Shown piece by piece: positions 2,517 through 28,517 of a stretch of DNA of 42,066 bases (position 1 is its first letter; each line of letters begins with the position of its first letter). Source of the DNA: a virus (lineage: Duplodnaviria > Heunggongvirae > Uroviricota > Caudoviricetes); IMG/VR virus record IMGVR_UViG_2579778919_000006, positions 1-42,066 of that record. One strand, 5' to 3'. Below the pieces are notes generated by a model, which did no database searches, had not been told where the DNA came from, and saw only the letters and a program-made list of their open reading frames with translations. Made by a program: the position numbers and the translations under genes.

Positions 2517-3026
2517 AACAACTCCTAAATTTAGACAACATGAAGCCCGGAGAGGTATATAACCATCACCAGAAATAATTTCTGAATTGGTTTTTAATAC
2601 ATGTTGGGCAACGCCAGTGTTGGCATAGCTATAGTTGTATCAAATGCCATTGACCACCCACCCAAATAATAATTGCCGACTACTTTATTCCTTTCCGCTA
2701 TGACATTCCAACCTGTCATTACAATTCCTTTATACCTAATATTTCCGTAACCACCAACGTGTCGACAGTTAGCCCCGGTATAAACAATCTGGCAAAATTC
2801 ATCACCAATATTCAGGTTCGCATTGGCGATATTTATTGTCCCATCAAAAATGAATGGCTTCGTGCAAGTAAGAAGACGTTTGCGTTGACGATTGGTTTAT
2901 TCAATCCATCAACTAAAATACCATGTAAACGAATTGCCATGAGTTGTGCCCTTATATAAGATCGGGGTTTACATCTTAAATTATATCCCTATATAGTTGT
3001 TACACACAAACATAAAGGAGTTCGAA

Positions 3027-3305
3027 ATGAAGACTTTAATCTGCGCCATTATCCTTTCTATGACTGCTACTTTTGCTTATGCGACTGGCCCTTCCGGTGG
3101 TACTGGTGGTCCAGGTAATAGTGGCGCTGGTGGCTCATCATTAGGTGGGCATACCGGTGGAGTAAGTAACATTGAGCACCAGACTGTCATCTATGAAGGC
3201 ACTACCGCTGGTAAAGCTAAAGCTGAGTGGATGAAAGGTAAAAAAGTCAAACCTGATTGCTCACCAGCTATGAACCGTGTTGGTTGGTCCGAAGGTTGCA
3301 AATAA
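3027..3305 (+). CDS. small secreted glycine-rich protein (moron)
   Basis: AAGGAG Shine-Dalgarno 7 nt before ATG; signal-peptide-like N-terminus MKTLICAIILSMTATFAYA; Gly/Ser-rich middle; two C-terminal Cys; opposite strand to flanking tail genes. Confidence 0.45.
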   Translation: MKTLICAIILSMTATFAYATGPSGGTGGPGNSGAGGSSLGGHTGGVSNIEHQTVIYEGTTAGKAKAEWMKGKKVKPDCSPAMNRVGWSEGCK

Positions 3306-3334: not shown

Positions 3335-6300
3335 TTATGAGTAAGTAAACGATCCAGAACCTCTTGTTACAATCATTGTTGGACTTCTTAACCATCTATT
3401 AGTAGCACCCTCCTTAAATACGATTTTTGCAGTTACAGTTTCCGCAGTAACACCTTTAAAAGTGGCCATAACTGTACCAGACGTGGACAACATGCCGCCT
3501 TCCGTATTACGAACGGATGTGCCTGCGAATGCGCTTTTAGTAACACCATTCACGGTAATTTCCACCCCTAGTAACATCCCTGGATATTTAGGAACACCAG
3601 AAAGGTTAGCCATGACTGTGATGGTCTTAGTTGTATTAGCCGTATCCTTATAAGTGATTGTACGTGTCATATCGTACGTGCCACCTTCGCCGTATAAATC
3701 GTCAGCAACACCCATGTTGCATACATCACCAATAAAACTAGTAGCTTCTACAGTCCCTTTGAACTTACCGCTTGTTGCTTGTATCTCACCAGTAAATCTA
3801 CCGTCACTAGCATATACTACACCTCTGACGGTCACATTGTTGAATTCAGCATCTCCAGCTTTATTCAACTTCCAACCAGCAGAACCAGCTGCATAGTTGT
3901 TGGACTGGATGTAATTGCCGATTTTGGCGTTCTCAATGGTGCCGTCCTGGATGAAACTGGCCCGGATGAATGTCTGCCCGTTCTGGATCACGAACGGCAA
4001 AGCCACGCTGTTTCCGGCTGCCGTGGTGACGGCGAAGCGGTCAGCCAGGAAGATAACCTGCGACTGCATGCCGGATGGCGTATTCTCCACGCCGATCCCC
4101 ATCCCCGCGGCGTAATACTGACCGTTGCTGGAAACGCCAACCTTGATGTTATACATCGCGCTGAGGTCGCCATTAACGTTGGCTATCGCCTGAGCATTAG
4201 TGGTGATGGCTGAGGTATGCCCGTTCACCGTCGCCGTGATGCTGTTTACCTGCGTGGCCATAGCCTGCTGGTAATCGGAGAACGTCTGGTTCAGGCTGTT
4301 GATGGATGCCTTGTTGCTGTTAACGTCCGTCTGCAGGCTCAGCAGCGAGCGCGCCGTTGCCTCCCTGTCGTTGACAATCACCTCATCAATACGGTCCAGA
4401 TTCGCGCTGTTGCCGGCGACCGATGCAGACAACGTTTTACGCGCGGCTACCTGCGCCAGGTTGCCCTGAATAATTGCGATAGCAGAGTTCTTCACCCCGC
4501 CCGTCATGCCGTCCATAGACACGCTGATGCTGTCTATTCGCTGGCCCAGTGCGGTATCAGCAGTCGCAACAGTCTGCTCAAGCTCTGAGAGAGAAGACGA
4601 CACATCACCGACCGTGCTCGAAAGCTCATTAACACTGGTCTGAACCTGCCCAATGTCCTGCGCGTTTTTTGCGATTTCCTGCGCCTGGAGCTCAAGTTCA
4701 TCGTTGGCCTGTTTGATGTCGTCAGCCATGCCAGCAATTTTTTCGTTGCTGTCCACCGCGTTCTCGATCAGGTCTTTGAACGTATCGGAGTCTTTCATGT
4801 CCTCCAGGATTGCATCGGTGATATCGGATACATCGATGCTGGCCTGCCCGCGCACAAAGTCTGTATACCCTGATTCGTTTCCGCTGCGGTCCACCAGCTG
4901 CGCGCGGTACCAGAAAATTTGCCCAGCCTTTAGGCCCATCTGCTGATATTTGCGCTGCGGGTAAGGCACATCGGCCAGCAGCATGGCATCGTCTTCAGTA
5001 CCGGTCAGGCTGTACTGAATTTCAGTCTTCAGCGTGTCGTCGGTATTCGCCTGGAATCTCCAGTTCAGCTCGATACCGAACACCACGTTTTCAGAGGCGA
5101 TAAAGCCAACCGGCTTCGGTGGATTGCCCACTTTACCCGTCAGCGTTTTCTCTTCTGAATAGCCCCATCCGGATGAAATTTCTGCGGCATTGATTGCGCG
5201 CACCCGCACCAGGTAGCGCCCGGCATAAATCCCCGGGACGTCGAATGACGTGGTGGAGGTGCGCGGCACGTTAACCCAGTTCCCGTCGTTGCGGCGCCAT
5301 TGCGCTTCATAGGCGATAGCGTTCTGCGCCTGGTCCCAGCTCACGCGCATTGTTTCGACGCTGATATTTTGCTGAACCACGGAAAACGAGCTGATCACGA
5401 TATTCGCAGGCGGCGACTGGTTGCCCGGCGGGATCACGCTCACCGGCCGTTGGTCAATGATGGCTCCGGTATCGATACGGGCATATTTATCCGGGTCGTG
5501 CCATGCGCCGGTAATCGAGAAAGTGCCATCATTGTTATCGGAAACGCTGACAACACGATACTGCTGCGCGTAAAGCTCGTCAGATTCAACCACCCAAACA
5601 GCTTCGGCCTGTGGCGTCTCACTGTATGCCGTGGTGACTGTGACTGATTCCCCGTTCACGGCCTGAATGGTCCTGCTCTGCGACGCTCCGGAAGGCAGGT
5701 TGAGAATAAGGCGATCACCTGGTGCTGCATCAGCTACGCGGTCAAGTTTGATAACGCGACCGTTAACGGCGCTGATGCGGCCGCCCATAACCTTTCCGGA
5801 AAGCAGCTCGTCTGCCACGGCGATGATGTAGCCCGGCTGCGGAATGTTTCCGTCCAGCCCGACATCAAACGAAACAACGCGATCCTTGTTATTGGTGAGA
5901 ATACCCCAGCGCCCCTTTCGGTTCGCCTCTGACTGCCTGGTGCAGCCGATGGCTGTCATTTCCAGCTGATTGAAGCCGTACCGCGCCACCAGCGCCTGCT
6001 CAAATACCGGCTCCATCGCGTCGGCATAAGCGTTACCCGGGTCTGACCATGAAACCAGCGCTGTGGTGTAGCGGCTTTTCGTGGTGCTGCTCGAATAGGT
6101 GAAGCGACCGCCAACAACGTTAGCGCGCGTATAGCTGTAATCAACATCGCGCGGCATGTCAGCCAGGGCCACAATCTGATCCCCGCCCCAGTAGGTCATG
6201 CCACGGAAGATAGCGGCAAAATCACGCAGGACTGTGTAGGCGTCGTTCCGGTCCTGAATGTACACGTTGCAGGTATAGCGTGGTTCTGTACCGTTGCCCC

Positions 6301-7279
6301 CTTTGCCGTCTGGTACCATCTGATCACAATACTGAGCAACCTGATAAAGCGTCCATTTATCAATATTCGCAGCGGTCAAACGGTGCCCAAGGCCGAACCG
6401 GTCAGAAACAACCAGGTCGTAAAAAATCCACGCAGGGTTATCCGTCCATGCCCACTTAAACGCACCGGTCCATGTACCGCTATAAGTGCGGGTTTCAGGG
6501 TCGTAGGTATCTGGAACGCGGATAACGCGGCCGCGCGGTTCGCATGAAATTTGAGGAATAGAGCCGTTGAACTGGCTTGAGTCGAATTCGACGTAGAGCA
6601 GCGCGGTGTTCGGGTAGCGCAGTTTGGCGTCAATCACCTCGGTGAAGCTCTGCAGCATCATCGTGTCGCCGATCTTCGCGCTGTTGGCGTCAGAGGTAAT
6701 CTTACGCAGACGTATTGTCCATGTGCTGCCAGCCTGCGGTAAATCGATACGGTGGCTGCGCTCATAACCAGACGTCGTTTTGCCGGTCACGCTGGTATTG
6801 AGTACCGTCTGCCATGTGCCGCCGTCAGTCTGCAGGTCAATCGCATAATTGACCGAGTAACCCACCAGATCGCCGTCGTCTTCCTGTTTGAAAAGCGAGG
6901 GCCATTTAAGACGCAGGCGAACTGCTGAAAGCTGCGTATTGGTAAACGTGCGCGTCCAGGCTGTGGCACTTGATACCTCAGTTCCTACGCTGATCTCGTT
7001 TTCGGTACCGGGAATACCCTGAATATATTTTTGCGCCTGCGTTCCCGCGCGAAACTCCCACGTTACCCCGCTGAAGTTTTGGGAGCCGTCAGCATTCTCC
7101 AGCGCTGTTCCGTCCAGGTAGATATCTTTGCCGGTGAGCTGTCCAGCAAACTCCCCTTCCCCAAGCGCAACGAGGATTTTTGCCTTCGCTACAGATTGCA
7201 GATCATCAGGCTGTTCGGTAGGGGTTCGGGAACTTGAGCTGCCGCCCTTGCGGCCTTTTAACACTTTATCTGTAGCCAT
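3335..7279 (-). CDS. J: tail tip / host specificity protein J
   Basis: 1314 aa; N-terminal and central regions resemble lambda gpJ as I recall it; gene order after I; long divergent C-terminal region. Confidence 0.9.
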   Translation of the reverse strand: MATDKVLKGRKGGSSSSRTPTEQPDDLQSVAKAKILVALGEGEFAGQLTGKDIYLDGTALENADGSQNFSGVTWEFRAGTQAQKYIQGIPGTENEISVGTEVSSATAWTRTFTNTQLSAVRLRLKWPSLFKQEDDGDLVGYSVNYAIDLQTDGGTWQTVLNTSVTGKTTSGYERSHRIDLPQAGSTWTIRLRKITSDANSAKIGDTMMLQSFTEVIDAKLRYPNTALLYVEFDSSQFNGSIPQISCEPRGRVIRVPDTYDPETRTYSGTWTGAFKWAWTDNPAWIFYDLVVSDRFGLGHRLTAANIDKWTLYQVAQYCDQMVPDGKGGNGTEPRYTCNVYIQDRNDAYTVLRDFAAIFRGMTYWGGDQIVALADMPRDVDYSYTRANVVGGRFTYSSSTTKSRYTTALVSWSDPGNAYADAMEPVFEQALVARYGFNQLEMTAIGCTRQSEANRKGRWGILTNNKDRVVSFDVGLDGNIPQPGYIIAVADELLSGKVMGGRISAVNGRVIKLDRVADAAPGDRLILNLPSGASQSRTIQAVNGESVTVTTAYSETPQAEAVWVVESDELYAQQYRVVSVSDNNDGTFSITGAWHDPDKYARIDTGAIIDQRPVSVIPPGNQSPPANIVISSFSVVQQNISVETMRVSWDQAQNAIAYEAQWRRNDGNWVNVPRTSTTSFDVPGIYAGRYLVRVRAINAAEISSGWGYSEEKTLTGKVGNPPKPVGFIASENVVFGIELNWRFQANTDDTLKTEIQYSLTGTEDDAMLLADVPYPQRKYQQMGLKAGQIFWYRAQLVDRSGNESGYTDFVRGQASIDVSDITDAILEDMKDSDTFKDLIENAVDSNEKIAGMADDIKQANDELELQAQEIAKNAQDIGQVQTSVNELSSTVGDVSSSLSELEQTVATADTALGQRIDSISVSMDGMTGGVKNSAIAIIQGNLAQVAARKTLSASVAGNSANLDRIDEVIVNDREATARSLLSLQTDVNSNKASINSLNQTFSDYQQAMATQVNSITATVNGHTSAITTNAQAIANVNGDLSAMYNIKVGVSSNGQYYAAGMGIGVENTPSGMQSQVIFLADRFAVTTAAGNSVALPFVIQNGQTFIRASFIQDGTIENAKIGNYIQSNNYAAGSAGWKLNKAGDAEFNNVTVRGVVYASDGRFTGEIQATSGKFKGTVEATSFIGDVCNMGVADDLYGEGGTYDMTRTITYKDTANTTKTITVMANLSGVPKYPGMLLGVEITVNGVTKSAFAGTSVRNTEGGMLSTSGTVMATFKGVTAETVTAKIVFKEGATNRWLRSPTMIVTRGSGSFTYS

Positions 7280-7291
7280 ATTGCGCCCATA

Positions 7292-7315
7292 AAAAAGCCA
7301 CCCAAAGGTGGCTAC
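7292..7315 (-). terminator. intrinsic terminator 13 nt upstream of the J start codon
   Basis: perfect 7-bp stem agccacc-caaa-ggtggct followed on the minus strand by TTTTTTAT. Confidence 0.5.
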
Positions 7316-7444
7316 TGTCTGAATATCAGGATGTTACAAATCTAAATACCTGGTTATGTTGTGGATTCAGCCCGCCAGCGGTGGGACGCTGGTGAACTCA
7401 TAACAGGTGGAATGGCTGATTACCTCTGGAAAAAGGAGAAGTAA

Positions 7445-7705
7445 ATGGGTTCGATGTTAGAACTGGAAAAAGAAGTGGCAGAGCTTAAACAAAAGCTGCT
7501 TACGCATGAAATTGCAACTGGCCTGATTCTATCGGACATTGTGAAATTACTGGACATTGCCCGGCCAGGCGCACTCGATGCTCTGACTAAAAACTATCAG
7601 GCAGGGCAAGCAAAAATCCCAGAATCAGCTGCACGTAATGATCCGCACACAATTGATGCGTTCACGCGCATCCTTAAAGTTTTAGAGGTGGCATCAAAGA
7701 AATAA
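7445..7705 (+). CDS. hypothetical protein, antisense moron inside the tail operon
   Basis: 86-aa ORF with AAGGAG Shine-Dalgarno 6 nt before ATG; predicted helical; converges on and overlaps the 3' end of the minus-strand ORF at 7674-7991. Confidence 0.4.
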   Translation: MGSMLELEKEVAELKQKLLTHEIATGLILSDIVKLLDIARPGALDALTKNYQAGQAKIPESAARNDPHTIDAFTRILKVLEVASKK

Positions 7706-7991
7706 TTAAATCGAGCTTTTCATTGAATATTTCTTCATGAGTTTTAGCGGCCTCATTCTGGGCCGCTGTTACCGTTCCACCGAAAACCCCTGCATCACCC
7801 TGCGAAATCTTTCCCTCCTTTACTCGCAAACTCCAGCCATTACCGGTGATGGTCGAATGAATAGCGCCACCTGGCCGTAGTGCGTTCTGAATGGCGGAAT
7901 TGACGATTGCCGGGTTATGCAGCTCTGCTATCTCCACCTGCAGGCTCGCGATGGTTGCCTCAAGCATGCTCATGCGCTCTTCTAAAGTCAT
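7674..7991 (-). CDS. hypothetical protein between tail genes I and J
   Basis: start re-set to the ATG with GGAG Shine-Dalgarno (track ORF extends to 8093); coiled-coil-like N-terminus then IVNSAIQNALRPGGAI, a motif shared with the C-terminus of the 24747-25367 ORF. Confidence 0.45.
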   Translation of the reverse strand: MTLEERMSMLEATIASLQVEIAELHNPAIVNSAIQNALRPGGAIHSTITGNGWSLRVKEGKISQGDAGVFGGTVTAAQNEAAKTHEEIFNEKLDLIISLMPPLKL

Positions 7992-8028
7992 AGTTTTCTC
8001 CTGCCTATCAGCTAATAAGTTAATTAAT

Positions 8029-8619
8029 TTACTGTTGATCTTCGACATAAATTCCGGCAGAAATAATCGCTCCGCCGATTCGACGCTTACCATAAAGCAG
8101 AGGCACTGGGTAGCCTTGCGCTGCAGTGTTGGTTACCCCGCCAAACGCATACGATGCACGGTTATCTGCACTTTGTTTGCTGGCCAGCCCCGCTGGTTGA
8201 GGGGAAAGCATCTGAACAACCCCGCCAATCATCATTGCGGCACCGAATTTGTATAAGAATGGTGATGCCGCAGCCCAGGGTGTGAAATTAAGCACCGCCC
8301 CAACGGCAACCAGAACTGCACCAAGTATTGTCTGGAGTAATCCGGCCTTTTTGCTCCCGATAATCACCGGGACAATGCGAATGACATCGCCGGTGACCGG
8401 GTAACCCAGGTCATCAACTCCTATGTTTTTCTTTCCTTTAAAAATGGCAAAGGTTAGTCCGCGGCGCTTGCTGTTTACCATATAACTTTCAAACCCGGTG
8501 ATTGTTTTTGCGAGTGCTACACCTGCTTCAGAAACTTTACTGATAAGTCGCCAATGAGTTTTACCAAATATTTTACCGGGTTCGCCGCCGAGCTCAATTC
8601 GAGTCATTGCTTCAGACAT
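8029..8619 (-). CDS. I: tail assembly protein I
   Basis: 196 aa with RIVPV...GGVVQMLSPQP...YGKRRIGGAIISAGIYVEDQQ, the gpI pattern as I recall it. Confidence 0.8.
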   Translation of the reverse strand: MSEAMTRIELGGEPGKIFGKTHWRLISKVSEAGVALAKTITGFESYMVNSKRRGLTFAIFKGKKNIGVDDLGYPVTGDVIRIVPVIIGSKKAGLLQTILGAVLVAVGAVLNFTPWAAASPFLYKFGAAMMIGGVVQMLSPQPAGLASKQSADNRASYAFGGVTNTAAQGYPVPLLYGKRRIGGAIISAGIYVEDQQ

Positions 8620-8632
8620 ATAAACCTCTTAA

Positions 8633-8660
8633 TAATAAAAAACCCCGCCTGAGCGAGGTT
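8633..8660 (-). terminator. putative intrinsic terminator after the lipoprotein gene
   Basis: 6-bp stem with one G-U pair (cctcgc-tcag-gcgggg) followed by a T-run on the minus strand. Confidence 0.35.
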
Positions 8661-8677
8661 ATATATAATTGCTGCAT

Positions 8678-9091
8678 TCAAAATGCTGTAGGGTAGATAC
8701 CAAAATCACCGTTGGTTCCGTAACCAACTCTAAACATCAAAACCCCAGTATCTGTCACCTTACCCGACTGTTCGCTCATGCCTCCGCCACACATACCTTT
8801 GGGCCAAGCGCTAAAGATATGATCTCCAATTTTGGGATAGACCGTTACCTTTTGAGCTGTATCTAAGTCTGCGACCTCCTTGCCATCAACATAAACTCGG
8901 GTCATGCAGGCGCTGCCCATAAAACCAGAGTCTCGTTTGATTATTACCTTGCCAGTCCCTTCTTTTTTTACTAGCAGTGTATTGCTGATAACCTGTTTTG
9001 CAGGAACATCCTGTGCTTGTTCATTTGTCACCGGCTTAGTTGCACAACCGGCAACCATTAAGATGGAGGTAAAAACTAAAATTCTTTTCAT
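8678..9091 (-). CDS. predicted lipoprotein (moron)
   Basis: start re-set to MKRILVFTSILMVAGC, a lipoprotein signal peptide with lipobox and Cys; about 137 aa; no family recognised. Confidence 0.55.
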   Translation of the reverse strand: MKRILVFTSILMVAGCATKPVTNEQAQDVPAKQVISNTLLVKKEGTGKVIIKRDSGFMGSACMTRVYVDGKEVADLDTAQKVTVYPKIGDHIFSAWPKGMCGGGMSEQSGKVTDTGVLMFRVGYGTNGDFGIYPTAF

Positions 9092-9179
9092 ATCCCTATC
9101 CCCTTTGGTCAATTTTGCCAAAAGAGTAGCAGGGATCGAGCGGTAGCAAAACCGAATGTTATCTTGGTTCACGCGCCCT

Positions 9180-9689
9180 TTAAATACCGGGGAGATACAT
9201 CTGTACTTCATCAGCTACACGCTCCCGTGCTGTGTGTAGAAGCCGCTTGCGGCCACCAACACCCCACTTGGCCATCTGGCTGGCGCACTGGCTGATCGCT
9301 TTGGTTTCGGTGTTAATCACATGGTCGATTTTATTCAAGCGAGACATGGCATCGAACCCGCGACGCATTAGCATTTGAAATGTCTCATAGACTTTGATTT
9401 CAAAAAGCGGATTGAGCCAGGCTGCATAGCGTATAGCGATAAGTTCAAGCCCCCAGGAGCCCTGAAATGGTCCCCCCTTAATTGTCATAACCGATGCGAT
9501 TTTCTTCGCATCGCTCAAGGCTTGAACAAATCGCCTTACTTGCTTGGTTTTGAGAAACTCACCTGGTCGCTGTGATTCAGTGGCTTTGCCTTCAGCCACC
9601 GCTGCGGCGTGGAGATCATTAAGATTATAACGTCCTTCGTTATCGACACGAACTGATACGCCGTTTACAGATACGGTTGGATATTGCAT
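9180..9689 (-). CDS. KilA-N domain protein
   Basis: N-terminal VNGVSVRVDNEGRYNLNDLHAAA...GSWGLELIAIRYAAWLNPLFEIKV fits the KilA-N DNA-binding domain pattern; C-terminal half unassigned. Confidence 0.6.
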   Translation of the reverse strand: MQYPTVSVNGVSVRVDNEGRYNLNDLHAAAVAEGKATESQRPGEFLKTKQVRRFVQALSDAKKIASVMTIKGGPFQGSWGLELIAIRYAAWLNPLFEIKVYETFQMLMRRGFDAMSRLNKIDHVINTETKAISQCASQMAKWGVGGRKRLLHTARERVADEVQMYLPGI

Positions 9690-9830
9690 ATCGGATTACC
9701 TTTTAGTGATGAACCTTGTCGCACAGGAAAACGGCCCCAAGAAGGCTCCGACAGCCAGCCGGTTCCTCAAGGTGCATCCTGAAAGGTTCTTGGTTTGAAT
9801 TGCGCGTGCGGTGCGCGGTGAAATGCGGGG

Positions 9831-9854
9831 TTTAAAAAAACCCACCTGAGTGGG
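9831..9854 (-). terminator. intrinsic terminator immediately after K
   Basis: stem cccac-ctga-gtggg followed on the minus strand by TTTTTTTAAA, directly after the K stop codon. Confidence 0.55.
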
Positions 9855-10565
9855 CTATAGAAGCGTTTTATATCTGACGATCTTCATCGTCCTTTCCTGC
9901 CAGTAGCCACCATACGGCACGCGCTGGCTCAGATGTCCGTACAGGTGGTGCAGCAGCATATTTCCCTCCAGCAGAATTCCCGCGTGGTTCCACTTATCAG
10001 CCTGGACCTGCATGATCACCATATCGCCGGGTTTCGGTGGCCCGTCGAATTCCCGGAAACCGCACTCATACCAGCAATCCTGATAGAAGTTGTCCGGATA
10101 TTCGTTTTCCCACCAGGGATAATCAACCCGGTAATCGTGGAGTTCGATACCATGCGTTTGCCGAAAATAGCTCATTACCAGCCCCCAGCAGTCGAAGTGT
10201 CCAAGCACAAACGGACGCTCCAGCAGCGGCAGTTCTCCGCGCGGCTGGATGGTGCGTAAATCCCCCTCCGGCCAGCTCACAATATGCCAGGGTAAAAGCG
10301 TTGCGTCGCATTGCGCTTTATCCAGTTCGCTCGGTTGCGTTGTGGCGTCAGGGTGACTGTGAACGATGGCGATCACCGTACCCCAGTCCTCAGCAGCGGC
10401 ATAGTCTTCTGGCGACAGGTGAAAATGTTCTGTCGGCTCGGTAGCGAGGTTACTACATGGAAAATATTTCTCTACCCGGCTCTTTTGCGCCACCACGCCG
10501 CAACACTCACGAGGATATTCAGCTGCAGCATGCGCCATAATCGCATCGATGGTTTTCTGACGCAT
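9855..10565 (-). CDS. K: tail assembly protein K (MPN/JAMM plus NlpC/P60 domains)
   Basis: HSHP motif and C-terminal Cys/His-containing segment; position between L and I. Confidence 0.85.
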   Translation of the reverse strand: MRQKTIDAIMAHAAAEYPRECCGVVAQKSRVEKYFPCSNLATEPTEHFHLSPEDYAAAEDWGTVIAIVHSHPDATTQPSELDKAQCDATLLPWHIVSWPEGDLRTIQPRGELPLLERPFVLGHFDCWGLVMSYFRQTHGIELHDYRVDYPWWENEYPDNFYQDCWYECGFREFDGPPKPGDMVIMQVQADKWNHAGILLEGNMLLHHLYGHLSQRVPYGGYWQERTMKIVRYKTLL

Positions 10566-24746: not shown

Positions 24747-25367
24747 TCAACGCCCTCTTTGTTGAACCCATATTGCACCTCCAGGCTTTAGCGCGTTGCG
24801 GATTGCATCGTTTACAGCATCGTGCATCGCTTGTTTCAGGCCGGTGAGTGAGGCTGTTTGTGCATCGATATTTACTTGTATTGCCGTGAGCAGATCGCTT
24901 TCACGTACAGCATCAATGACGGCCTGCGTCATTTCATCGCCAAGCTTAAACTTCACCTTCGAGGCTGATACCACGGCGTTTCCGACGGTTGATCGAGCGG
25001 CTTCATTTACCTTCAAGGATTCAGCTTTAAACTCGGCCTTTCTTTGCCCATCTTCAACTCCAACAGCCATACCGGCAGCGTGCTCTATGCCATTATTGTT
25101 GATATTCAACTTCACGTTATAGTTCGCAGATACAATGCCACTACCAATAAAGGCATCTTTGATAAAGACCTTGCCATCTTTGACGCCAATAGCCCATCCC
25201 GTGGCTTTATCTTCTGTTACTCGTTCAATGCGGAAACTGAATGGACTCTTTTCATAAAGCCCCATGGCAATCGTTCTTTTCCCATCACGATCATAACGGG
25301 CTGTATACTCAGCCGTTTGAAGCTCATGGCCATCGTCACGTAATATGAGCACCATATCTTTATTCAT
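24747..25367 (-). CDS. hypothetical protein with segments resembling the distal region of J
   Basis: start re-set to MNKDMVLIL (AGGAAA Shine-Dalgarno); ANYNVKLNINNNGIEHAAGMAVGVEDG and KVFIKDAFIGSGIV resemble J segments AMYNIKVGVSSNGQYYAAGMGIGVEN and TFIRASFIQDGTI; C-terminus AVNDAIRNALKPGGAI. Confidence 0.5.
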   Translation of the reverse strand: MNKDMVLILRDDGHELQTAEYTARYDRDGKRTIAMGLYEKSPFSFRIERVTEDKATGWAIGVKDGKVFIKDAFIGSGIVSANYNVKLNINNNGIEHAAGMAVGVEDGQRKAEFKAESLKVNEAARSTVGNAVVSASKVKFKLGDEMTQAVIDAVRESDLLTAIQVNIDAQTASLTGLKQAMHDAVNDAIRNALKPGGAIWVQQRGR

Positions 25368-25528
25368 TTTTTCATTTCCTTTTAGACGTGAGCCTGTCGC
25401 ACAGCAAAGCCGCCGAAAGTTAACGGTTTGCCCAGGCTCACAACTGAAAGACTTTCTACGGTGTGCGCGTGCGATGCGCATAAAAAAGCCCCGCATAAGC
25501 GAGGCTAAATATCGAACAACTTCTTTTG

Positions 25529-27594: not shown

Positions 27595-27743
27595 AATGAG
27601 TTGACTATTTGTAAGGTAGGTGTGAGTAAGACTTATGCTCAGAGGTGAAGCTGTATCGGCTGATTCACTATCGGTCCAGGAGAACCACCGGGCATTCAGT
27701 TACTTCCCACAACTCAAAGCGTAGCAGCAGTTTGCAAAACCAT

Positions 27744-27771
27744 AAAAAAAGGCCTGCGTTTAATGGCAGGC
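27744..27771 (-). terminator. intrinsic terminator in the late leader
   Basis: 6-bp stem gcctgc/gcaggc followed on the minus strand by T7. Confidence 0.55.
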
Positions 27772-27988
27772 TCTCAAGGAATTTGAAACTTGTATTGTAG
27801 TTGTCATGGTGCCGGGTGCCTCCCGGTGACTCTACTCCAGCCAGCAAAGTCGCGCGCATACCTGCAGATAGCAGTTGGCTGGAACGCCCTTTCGCTTAGA
27901 AAGGATTCACCACAGAAATAAATTACGCCGAACTTATTCCTGCAGTCAATGAGATTAGCCATTGCTTCCTGATGGTTGTCTTACAAAT

Positions 27989-28208: not shown

Positions 28209-28283
<75 letters not shown>

Positions 28284-28286
28284 ATA

Positions 28287-28362
<76 letters not shown>

Positions 28363-28364
28363 AG

Positions 28365-28438
28365 TGGTCCGCCACCGGAGCCTCGAACCCCGTACCACAA
28401 CACCTGGGTTGCCGCTCTTCCCGATGAGCTAGTGGCGG
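28365..28438 (-). tRNA. tRNA-like element, anticodon unresolved (possible degenerate tRNA)
   Basis: acceptor, D and T arms fold (T-loop TTCGAGG, 3' ACCA) but the best anticodon-arm pairing GCAAC/GTTGT leaves a 6-nt loop. Confidence 0.45.
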
Positions 28439-28440
28439 TC

Positions 28441-28517
28441 TGGTGGCCCTTGCTGGACTTGAACCAGCGACCGGGCGATTATGAGTCGCACGCTCTAACC
28501 AACTGAGCTAAAGGGCC
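28441..28517 (-). tRNA. tRNA with CAU anticodon (Met or Ile2-lysidine type)
   Basis: reverse complement GGCCCTTTAGCTCAGTTGGTTAGAGC...; anticodon loop CTCATAA; T-arm GGTTCAAGTCC; 3' CCA. Confidence 0.75.

Follow-up and report, generated by a model that had tools for sequence, protein, structure and literature searches.

A KilA-N gene and a lipoprotein gene between tail genes K and I of a lambdoid prophage are probably two unrelated morons

We analyzed a lambdoid prophage (Caudoviricetes; IMG/VR record IMGVR_UViG_2579778919_000006, positions 1 to 42,066), and we refer to this whole stretch of 42,066 nucleotides as the window. Our subject is the interval between its tail genes K and I, which holds a gene for a KilA-N domain protein and a gene for a small lipoprotein. 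We describe the anatomy of this interval, the separate distributions of its two modules, and the covariation in a leader RNA that precedes the KilA-N gene. We found that each gene is widespread without the other and has its own flanking element. We consider it probable (roughly 60%) that the interval carries two unrelated, neighboring morons, at a site where lambda-like tail operons repeatedly receive insertions, with the roles that we propose below.

RESULTS

Two genes separate tail genes K and I

The tail genes of the window are encoded on the minus strand; from H (14188-11672) onward, their order is M, L, K, I, and J. In lambda, K and I abut, and in phage HK639 (L002) K is followed directly by I, with nothing between them. 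In the window, two open reading frames (ORFs) lie between K and I (Table 1). The order K, KilA-N gene, lipoprotein gene, I, which a preliminary description of this DNA had reported, was confirmed by coordinates and by Pfam and phrog matches. The insert is compositionally distinct: we found that G+C content is 0.42-0.47 over the insert and the lipoprotein gene, compared with 0.53-0.57 in K, L, and J. Both of the intrinsic terminators that the preliminary description had placed after K and after the lipoprotein gene were found there. Their hairpin parts span 9856-9839 (then T7) and 8660-8641 (then T6). Across the 4-kb region, there are 12 terminator-like sites, against an expectation of 4.2 ± 2.3, and the strong ones fall precisely within gaps between genes. 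The insert has several features of a moron: it is present or absent among syntenic relatives, it differs in base composition, and, for the lipoprotein gene, it has its own terminator.

Table 1. Features of the K-I interval and of related or neighboring parts of the window (dG, free energy)
Feature	Positions	Strand	Size, match, or stability	Place
K	9855-10565	-	Pfam Prok-JAB 2.6e-21 and NlpC_P60 9.6e-22; phrog_30 1e-134	Upstream edge of insertion
I	8029-8619	-	phrog_32, tail assembly protein, 7.8e-70	Downstream edge of insertion
KilA-N ORF	9180-9689	-	169 aa	Between K and I
Lipoprotein ORF	8678-9091	-	137 aa	Between KilA-N gene and I
Intrinsic terminator	9832-9856	-	7-bp GC-rich stem and T7 run; dG -10.3, z -3.5	Right after K
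Intrinsic terminator	8633-8660	-	8-bp stem and T6 run; dG -12.1 kcal/mol, z -5.0	After lipoprotein gene
Spacer	9092-9179	-	88 nt; lipoprotein ribosome-binding site AAAGGGGATAGGGATATG inside	KilA-N gene to lipoprotein gene
Structured 5' leader	9687-9819	-	~125 nt; GCGC-N7-GCGC hairpin, then long imperfect hairpin	Ahead of KilA-N gene
Second terminator and leader module	24747-25506	-		Post-lysis (usual) position, between lysis genes and terminase
ORF	7674-7991	-	~105 aa; phrog_22477	Between I and J
ORF	7445-7705	+	86 aa; phrog_23209	Between I and J, convergent
Strong terminator	7296-7313	-	dG -12.7	Just before J

The lipoprotein gene is an independent mobile module

We found that the lipoprotein matches the phrog_890 "lipoprotein" profile over its whole length (residues 1-137 on profile positions 1-136 of 136; E 2.1e-51). 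The signal peptide (MKRILVFTSILMVAGC) closes with a V-A-G-C lipobox, and the residue at +2 is Ala. The processing signal claimed earlier is a valid lipobox (MKRILVFTSILMVAG followed by C), and its Cys16 is unchanged across 42 homologues, in which C62, C101, and K52-R53-D54 are also invariant. The mature protein has ~121 aa. An AlphaFold2 model (predicted local distance difference test [pLDDT], 90.4) has 8 strands in a single beta-sandwich domain, and structure comparison gave generic transthyretin/immunoglobulin-like matches only. No Pfam family covers the phrog_890 lipoprotein, and Pfam and NCBIfam returned nothing beyond signal-peptide noise for it. A DUF2846-like identity, which we had suspected, was not supported by Pfam. 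With both the lipoprotein and the KilA-N protein, NCBIfam and PADLOC gave no meaningful match and PDB sequence searches gave nothing useful.

The family is large and widely spread. Using tblastn, we found the lipoprotein in 61 phage records, and a profile search found ~1,555 phrog_890 lipoprotein clusters at 50% identity. Phage mEp390, Pseudomonas phage vB_Pae_CF127a, and prophages L015, L016, and L018 have the lipoprotein gene between K and I but no KilA-N gene there; the L020 copy is the immediate upstream neighbor of I. The mEp390 lipoprotein is only ~32-33% identical to that of the window although its K is 94% identical, and the two genes share the ribosome-binding-site stretch despite this low protein identity. 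The vB_Pae_CF127a protein is 28% identical to the window protein. At other tail sites, the gene lies between the tail chaperone gene T and the tape-measure gene H (a Yersinia prophage), after the tape-measure gene at the H-M junction and followed by a YafO-type toxin gene (HK639), or, in a P2-like prophage (L017), beyond gpU/gpD at its outer end. In Vibrio phage H20, it starts 15 nt past the cI repressor gene on the same strand, and in Vibrio alginolyticus it lies inside a small integrase and Rep island. The family also reaches Nitrosospira, Geomonas, a Methylococcales symbiont, and deltaproteobacterial metagenome-assembled genomes (MAGs).

Because other members of the family are encoded outside prophages in defense islands, behind a cI repressor gene, or at the end of a P2-like prophage, we concluded that the lipoprotein is not a structural tail component. 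The preliminary description had treated the insert as something other than a conserved part of the tail module, and for the lipoprotein this held: it recurs at K-I yet is also found outside tail modules and prophages. We then compared the 3' flanks of 11 other copies. A hairpin with a T-run is evident in 10 of the 11, and the stem sequences all differ; at the L017 copy, the hairpin is present and the T-run is unclear. The lipoprotein gene is an independent mobile module that carries its own ribosome-binding site and terminator.

A terminator and a structured leader precede the KilA-N gene

In the RNAalifold consensus, the 5' side of the long leader hairpin contains ACCUUU, which is base paired to AAAGGU, the Shine-Dalgarno sequence of the KilA-N gene. 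In every case the helix includes the Shine-Dalgarno, and its spacing from the start codon is constant. We found by blastn that the 130-160 nt upstream of the KilA-N start codon have 77-96% DNA identity in 307 phage records. The leader lies ahead of "ant," between R and Rz, in 933W and other Shiga toxin (Stx) phages, after Rz in P22-like phages, and between tail tube and tape-measure genes in Klebsiella and Salmonella siphoviruses; it is also present in phages Dewey and Hafnia Pocitis76. More than 120 IMG/VR leader loci lie mostly 153 nt after endolysin R, after Rz, or ~800 nt past V, and none of them lies after K.

Most inspected leader copies open with an intrinsic terminator of their own at the same place, and the stems differ in sequence. 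The hairpin upstream of the leader has no clear T-run in 933W and in Klebsiella phage 2b LV-2017. We assign the terminator after K to the mobile KilA-N module, as its 5' element, and the one before I to the lipoprotein module. Different cargo genes follow the leader, always starting at the same spacing from it; they encode KilA-N plus ORF11CD3, KilA-N plus P63C, or P22_AR_N plus ORF11CD3; further cargo consists of Rha with or without ORF11CD3, an HNH nuclease, and a Phage_Tail_Tip-domain protein. Most of these cargo types are proteins of the "Bro network," a set of domain-swapping phage proteins (PMC10111431). The first six codons, M-x-Y-P-T-V (window 9672-9689), are common to KilA-N cargo and the otherwise unrelated Rha cargo, and because they are shared even with Rha we place the recombination joint just inside the ORF.

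To judge the pairing, we aligned 16 distinct leader sequences. The GCGC-N7-GCGC hairpin is invariant. We found that 97.2% of the cells are paired, compared with 34-47% in slid controls, and that 11 pairs show compensatory changes, compared with 0-3 in slid controls, a result that 0 of 500 shuffles reached. The lineages of Hafnia, Salmonella 29485, and HK639/window-2 maintain the helix through compensatory double changes. A covariance model (CM) built from the alignment, R1, scores 126.9 bits on the KilA-N leader. It also detects divergent copies. One is the second leader copy of the window (25365-25482; 53.9 bits, E 1.5e-10), which has its own terminator (25483-25506; dG -14.7) and precedes a 206-aa ORF (Pfam Phage_Tail_Tip, 5e-6). 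Another, in HK639 (L002:347-465; 59 bits), lies between an annotated terminator and HK639_13, an ORF with a Phage_Tail_Tip domain. Rfam returned nothing over 9687-9819 at the gathering threshold or at E ≤ 1, and by Rfam none of the known regulatory RNAs (C4, IsrK, and similar) is present in the KilA-N leader. A small ORF in the leader (9696-9845) was rejected: it overlaps the terminator, and indels between copies break its frame. These indels rule out a coding explanation for the conservation of the leader. A literature search on the leader and on late-operon regulation of Rha/Ant found no functional study.

The leader might instead be a recombination linker for cargo swapping in which the pairing is incidental. 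This would fit the very high sequence identity across unrelated phages, which extends into the first six codons, and a single-sequence fold that is modestly better than shuffles (z -1.4). The compensatory double changes and the fixed Shine-Dalgarno pairing speak against it, and we regard it as doubtful as a substitute for a regulatory RNA; the two roles are compatible with each other. In our proposal, the KilA-N cargo would be transcribed only when Q-modified polymerase passes the terminator in lytic growth, and its translation would be throttled, as the hairpin would bury the Shine-Dalgarno until something opens it.

The KilA-N protein is related to domain-shuffled phage proteins

Pfam matched residues 9-109 of the protein to KilA-N (PF04383; E 2.6e-15, 56.6 bits against a gathering cut-off of 23.8), and phrog_129 matched at 8.5e-55. 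We found 496 homologues across Enterobacterales. The closest (78-90% identity) are encoded between tail tube/DUF6246 and tape-measure genes in Klebsiella and Enterobacter prophages. Over its full length, the window protein aligns by BLASTP (E 7e-13) with a leader-linked KilA-N plus ORF11CD3 protein, of which residues 134-183 hit ORF11CD3 (PF10549) at 2.7e-12. The C terminus of the window protein has no direct Pfam match to ORF11CD3, and its likeness to this domain is seen through the BLASTP partner. From these matches, we predict that the protein is a domain-shuffled DNA-binding protein of the Bro network with an ORF11CD3-like tail. It is a candidate antirepressor, a role that is possible; Pfam detects only KilA-N in it and none of the P22-type antirepressor domains (ANT/AntA/P22_AR_N), of which P22_AR_N occurs in the 933W-type cargo. 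PADLOC gave a weak match to PDC-S22 only (E 0.0023).

No promoter was detected for either gene

We searched for promoters with a sigma-70 consensus scan, which weak or factor-dependent promoters may escape, and by eye. Neither approach found a convincing sigma-70 promoter in the KilA-N leader or in the 88-nt spacer. L003 and L016 likewise have no sigma-70 consensus match upstream of their lipoprotein genes, and in L019 the nearest one on the same strand lies ~500 nt upstream of the lipoprotein gene, within the chaperone gene. At tail-operon sites (K-lipoprotein-I loci), the gap upstream of the lipoprotein gene is just 30-60 nt.

The lipoprotein may exclude superinfecting phages

Several family members have defense genes as neighbors. 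In Nitrosospira, the lipoprotein gene is immediately upstream of SIR2 and HerA genes (PADLOC 1e-159 and 2e-259). In a deltaproteobacterial MAG (L022), two lipoprotein copies (5931-6332 and 8578-8996, the second ~2 kb beyond the first) flank an AbiGi gene (8e-52). In a Methylococcales symbiont, the gene precedes an HNH nuclease gene and a Shedu SduA gene (5e-23), and a metagenomic element has it between genes for a Prim-Pol/DUF3987 primase and an Mrr nuclease. Together with the position after cI in H20, these neighbors point to an anti-phage role expressed by resident elements. A literature search found no functional study of the H20 lipoprotein.

We also compared the J proteins of the carriers. 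Three prophages have 100% identical lipoproteins, and the C termini of their J proteins are unrelated or only 62% identical. Phage mEp390 has a nearly identical J N terminus and the diverged lipoprotein described above. Because identical lipoproteins accompany different J C termini, the lipoprotein, unlike Cor or Llp, is not matched to the receptor-binding domain of its carrier, and this comparison gave no sign of a coupling to the receptor-binding end of J. The earlier suggestion of a block of the phage's own receptor in the manner of Cor or Llp is not supported by these comparisons, nor by sequence, as there is no homology to Cor or Llp.

Our best guess, which we put at about even odds, is that the lipoprotein is an envelope-level exclusion factor that acts from the periplasmic face of the outer membrane. 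The protein would be exported and lipidated at Cys16. The Ala at +2 would direct it to the outer membrane, on whose inner face it would expose a disulfide-stabilized beta-sandwich to the periplasm. It would then shield the cell envelope from infecting phages by superinfection exclusion at or after adsorption, at a step that is probably independent of the receptor-binding domain of the prophage itself.

The main rival to exclusion is a late-expressed, Llp-like role. The lipoprotein would be a "lytic conversion" factor, made only late with the tail genes. By masking a receptor or a component of entry, it would keep progeny virions from being lost to cell debris and would protect the dying cell from superinfection. 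Consistently with this, no promoter of its own was detected for the gene and its upstream gaps at tail-operon sites are tiny, which implies cotranscription with the late genes, and the lipoprotein strongly prefers the tail modules of lambda-like siphoviruses. Nevertheless, late expression cannot be the only mode for the copies behind cI and for those in non-prophage islands, and an identical lipoprotein accompanies three different J C termini. In addition, the conserved terminator would barely affect Q-modified polymerase, which suggests some transcription that is not antiterminated. We consider this role unlikely.

A role in host fitness or virulence is less likely still. Lambda Bor confers serum resistance, and the lipoprotein could be a conversion factor of this kind, not an anti-phage protein: it is an outer membrane lipoprotein of prophages with no assigned function, it is widespread in Enterobacterales, including pathogens, and the mEp390 annotation mentions a Yersinia pMT1-type element. 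On the other hand, Pfam and NCBIfam show no Bor/Iss homology, and family members lie beside defense genes in lineages where animal virulence is irrelevant. This makes a Bor-like role improbable.

The two modules are rarely found together

To see how often the two genes are combined, we searched for the whole insert. At the DNA level, it is 100% identical in 1 of 5,426 complete Escherichia coli genomes, in a lambdoid prophage (L001) that adjoins yecD and aspS and has a separate annotated cor gene. Pseudocitrobacter faecalis DSM 27453 (L014) shares 97% identity with the window over the leader segment and encodes identical copies of both proteins. Among phage records, none contains more than one third of the insert. 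Thus, both genes lie at K-I in the window, L001, and L014, and the lipoprotein gene alone lies there in mEp390, L015, L016, and L018. Stacking of the lipoprotein gene with the KilA-N gene at K-I is rare, and the lipoprotein gene alone at this site is recurrent. The preliminary description had called the pairing at this position unusual, which holds for the pairing but not for the position.

That description had also taken the two genes for one unit with transcription boundaries of its own. We found that the lipoprotein gene occurs at K-I without KilA-N in at least six other loci and that the KilA-N module is normally placed behind the lysis genes or between tail tube and tape-measure genes; no sigma-70 promoter was found, and the two terminators belong to separate modules. 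A single functional cassette, in which the KilA-N protein would regulate or cooperate with the lipoprotein and the terminators would bound a dedicated transcription unit, is the least probable of the explanations that we considered. In its favor, the genes are adjacent and share an orientation, terminators lie on both outer sides, and an E. coli chromosome and P. faecalis have the exact pair (97-100% DNA identity). Against it, the pair occurs in only 1 of 5,426 E. coli genomes, each gene is frequent alone and travels with its own leader or terminator, and no promoter was found. Because each gene is widespread without the other and has its own flanking element, we concluded that the two modules are independent.

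Other features of the window

A second insertion (7296-8028) parts I from J. Its pair of ORFs (Table 1) is present in E. coli L001 and absent from P. faecalis L014. The 206-aa ORF behind the second leader copy has the C-terminal motif RNALKPGGAIW, and the small ORF between I and J has a similar one. J itself (3335-7279, minus strand) encodes 1,314 aa. The N-terminal 900 residues share 94-97% identity with the ~1,150-aa J proteins of relatives; of the last 250 residues, at most an ~80-residue stretch, 68-77% identical, is shared with them. Because these residues are barely shared, the receptor-binding end of J has been swapped. Between J and the side tail-fiber gene, positions 2997-3305 (plus strand) encode a protein of 102 aa that has a Gly-rich region as well as a signal peptide (MKTLICAIILSMTATFAYA) and looks like another moron; unlike a related E. 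coli prophage, the window has no cor gene in this interval. Between the Q-like region and the lysis genes, there is an Rfam match to the STnc100 small RNA (27740-27946, minus strand; 53 bits), next to three tRNA genes (28212-28517, minus strand).

DISCUSSION

We propose that two unrelated morons were inserted next to each other between K and I. The insertion into a tail operon is in itself an ordinary moron case, with two by-products of interest, an uncharacterized, defense-associated lipoprotein family and an apparently undescribed leader RNA that hundreds of temperate phages share. For the timing of expression, the exclusion function, and the binding target of the KilA-N protein, our proposals are inferred. 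Several points weigh against them. No promoter was detected for either gene, and any expression in a lysogen is hypothetical. The covariation in the leader comes from only ~3-4 independent lineages, and because most copies are nearly identical, recent spread may have inflated the apparent conservation. PADLOC has no match for the lipoprotein itself. Finally, the link to defense islands is tentative, as it comes from 4 of ~13 non-tail contexts and not from genome-wide statistics.

With less than even confidence, we tentatively make a joint claim: that the phrog_890 lipoproteins are a large uncharacterized family of single-gene envelope anti-phage proteins and that the leader unit is an undescribed portable cis-regulatory RNA. 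The family would be common to prophage tail modules, repressor operons, satellite-like elements, and chromosomal defense islands of Proteobacteria and related Gram-negative lineages, and it would act regardless of the receptor of the carrier phage. The leader would gate translation of Bro-network and other late-operon accessory genes, including Stx-phage ant. If the lipoprotein does exclude phages, it would add a widespread, compact, receptor-independent envelope defense to the prophage repertoire, and this is easily tested because the single gene can be expressed in E. coli. If the leader is regulatory, it would explain how hundreds of temperate phages, including Stx phages, silence potentially toxic DNA-binding genes in their most strongly transcribed operon, and it would provide a searchable marker for accessory cargo.

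The KilA-N module can be compared with two known groups. Like members of the Bro network (KilA-N, Rha, P22_AR_N, Bro-N, and ORF11CD3 proteins, such as 933W "Ant" and the Rha of P22/phi80), the window protein combines KilA-N with an ORF11CD3-like tail, and the 933W ant and Rha-type genes share its leader and its placement in a late operon. It differs in its atypical K-I location and in having no ANT/AntA domain. BstA is a prophage abortive-infection protein with an N-terminal KilA-N domain (PMC8585504). The window protein is likewise prophage encoded with an N-terminal KilA-N domain, but it has 169 aa, its gene lies in a late/tail operon, and it has no PADLOC match to BstA. BstA is reportedly larger than 169 aa and located by the repressor locus.

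The lipoprotein resembles Cor (phi80/N15/mEp) and T5 Llp, which are also small, phage encoded, equipped with a lipobox, and located in or beside the tail/receptor-binding region. It has no sequence homology to them, is ~2 times their size, is predicted to fold as a beta-sandwich, and is not linked to a particular J domain. The mEpimmI lipoproteins Lpp021 and Lpp010, from the structural gene cluster of temperate coliphages, exclude phages experimentally (PMC11893012). The window lipoprotein is like them in its gene-cluster placement, which is an analogy only: we considered these proteins as homologues, but tblastn with the window lipoprotein found no mEp021 or mEp010 record.

Morons of lambdoid late operons, such as lambda bor and lom, are known from the concept of Juhala and Hendrix. 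A classic moron consists of a promoter, a gene, and a terminator; in the window no promoter was identified, and the KilA-N module has a 5' terminator and a structured leader. Like these morons, the insert is present or absent among syntenic tail modules, is low in G+C, has its own terminator, and is nonstructural. HK97 gene 15 (gp15) lies between T and H, the same junction that the lipoprotein family member of the Yersinia prophage occupies.

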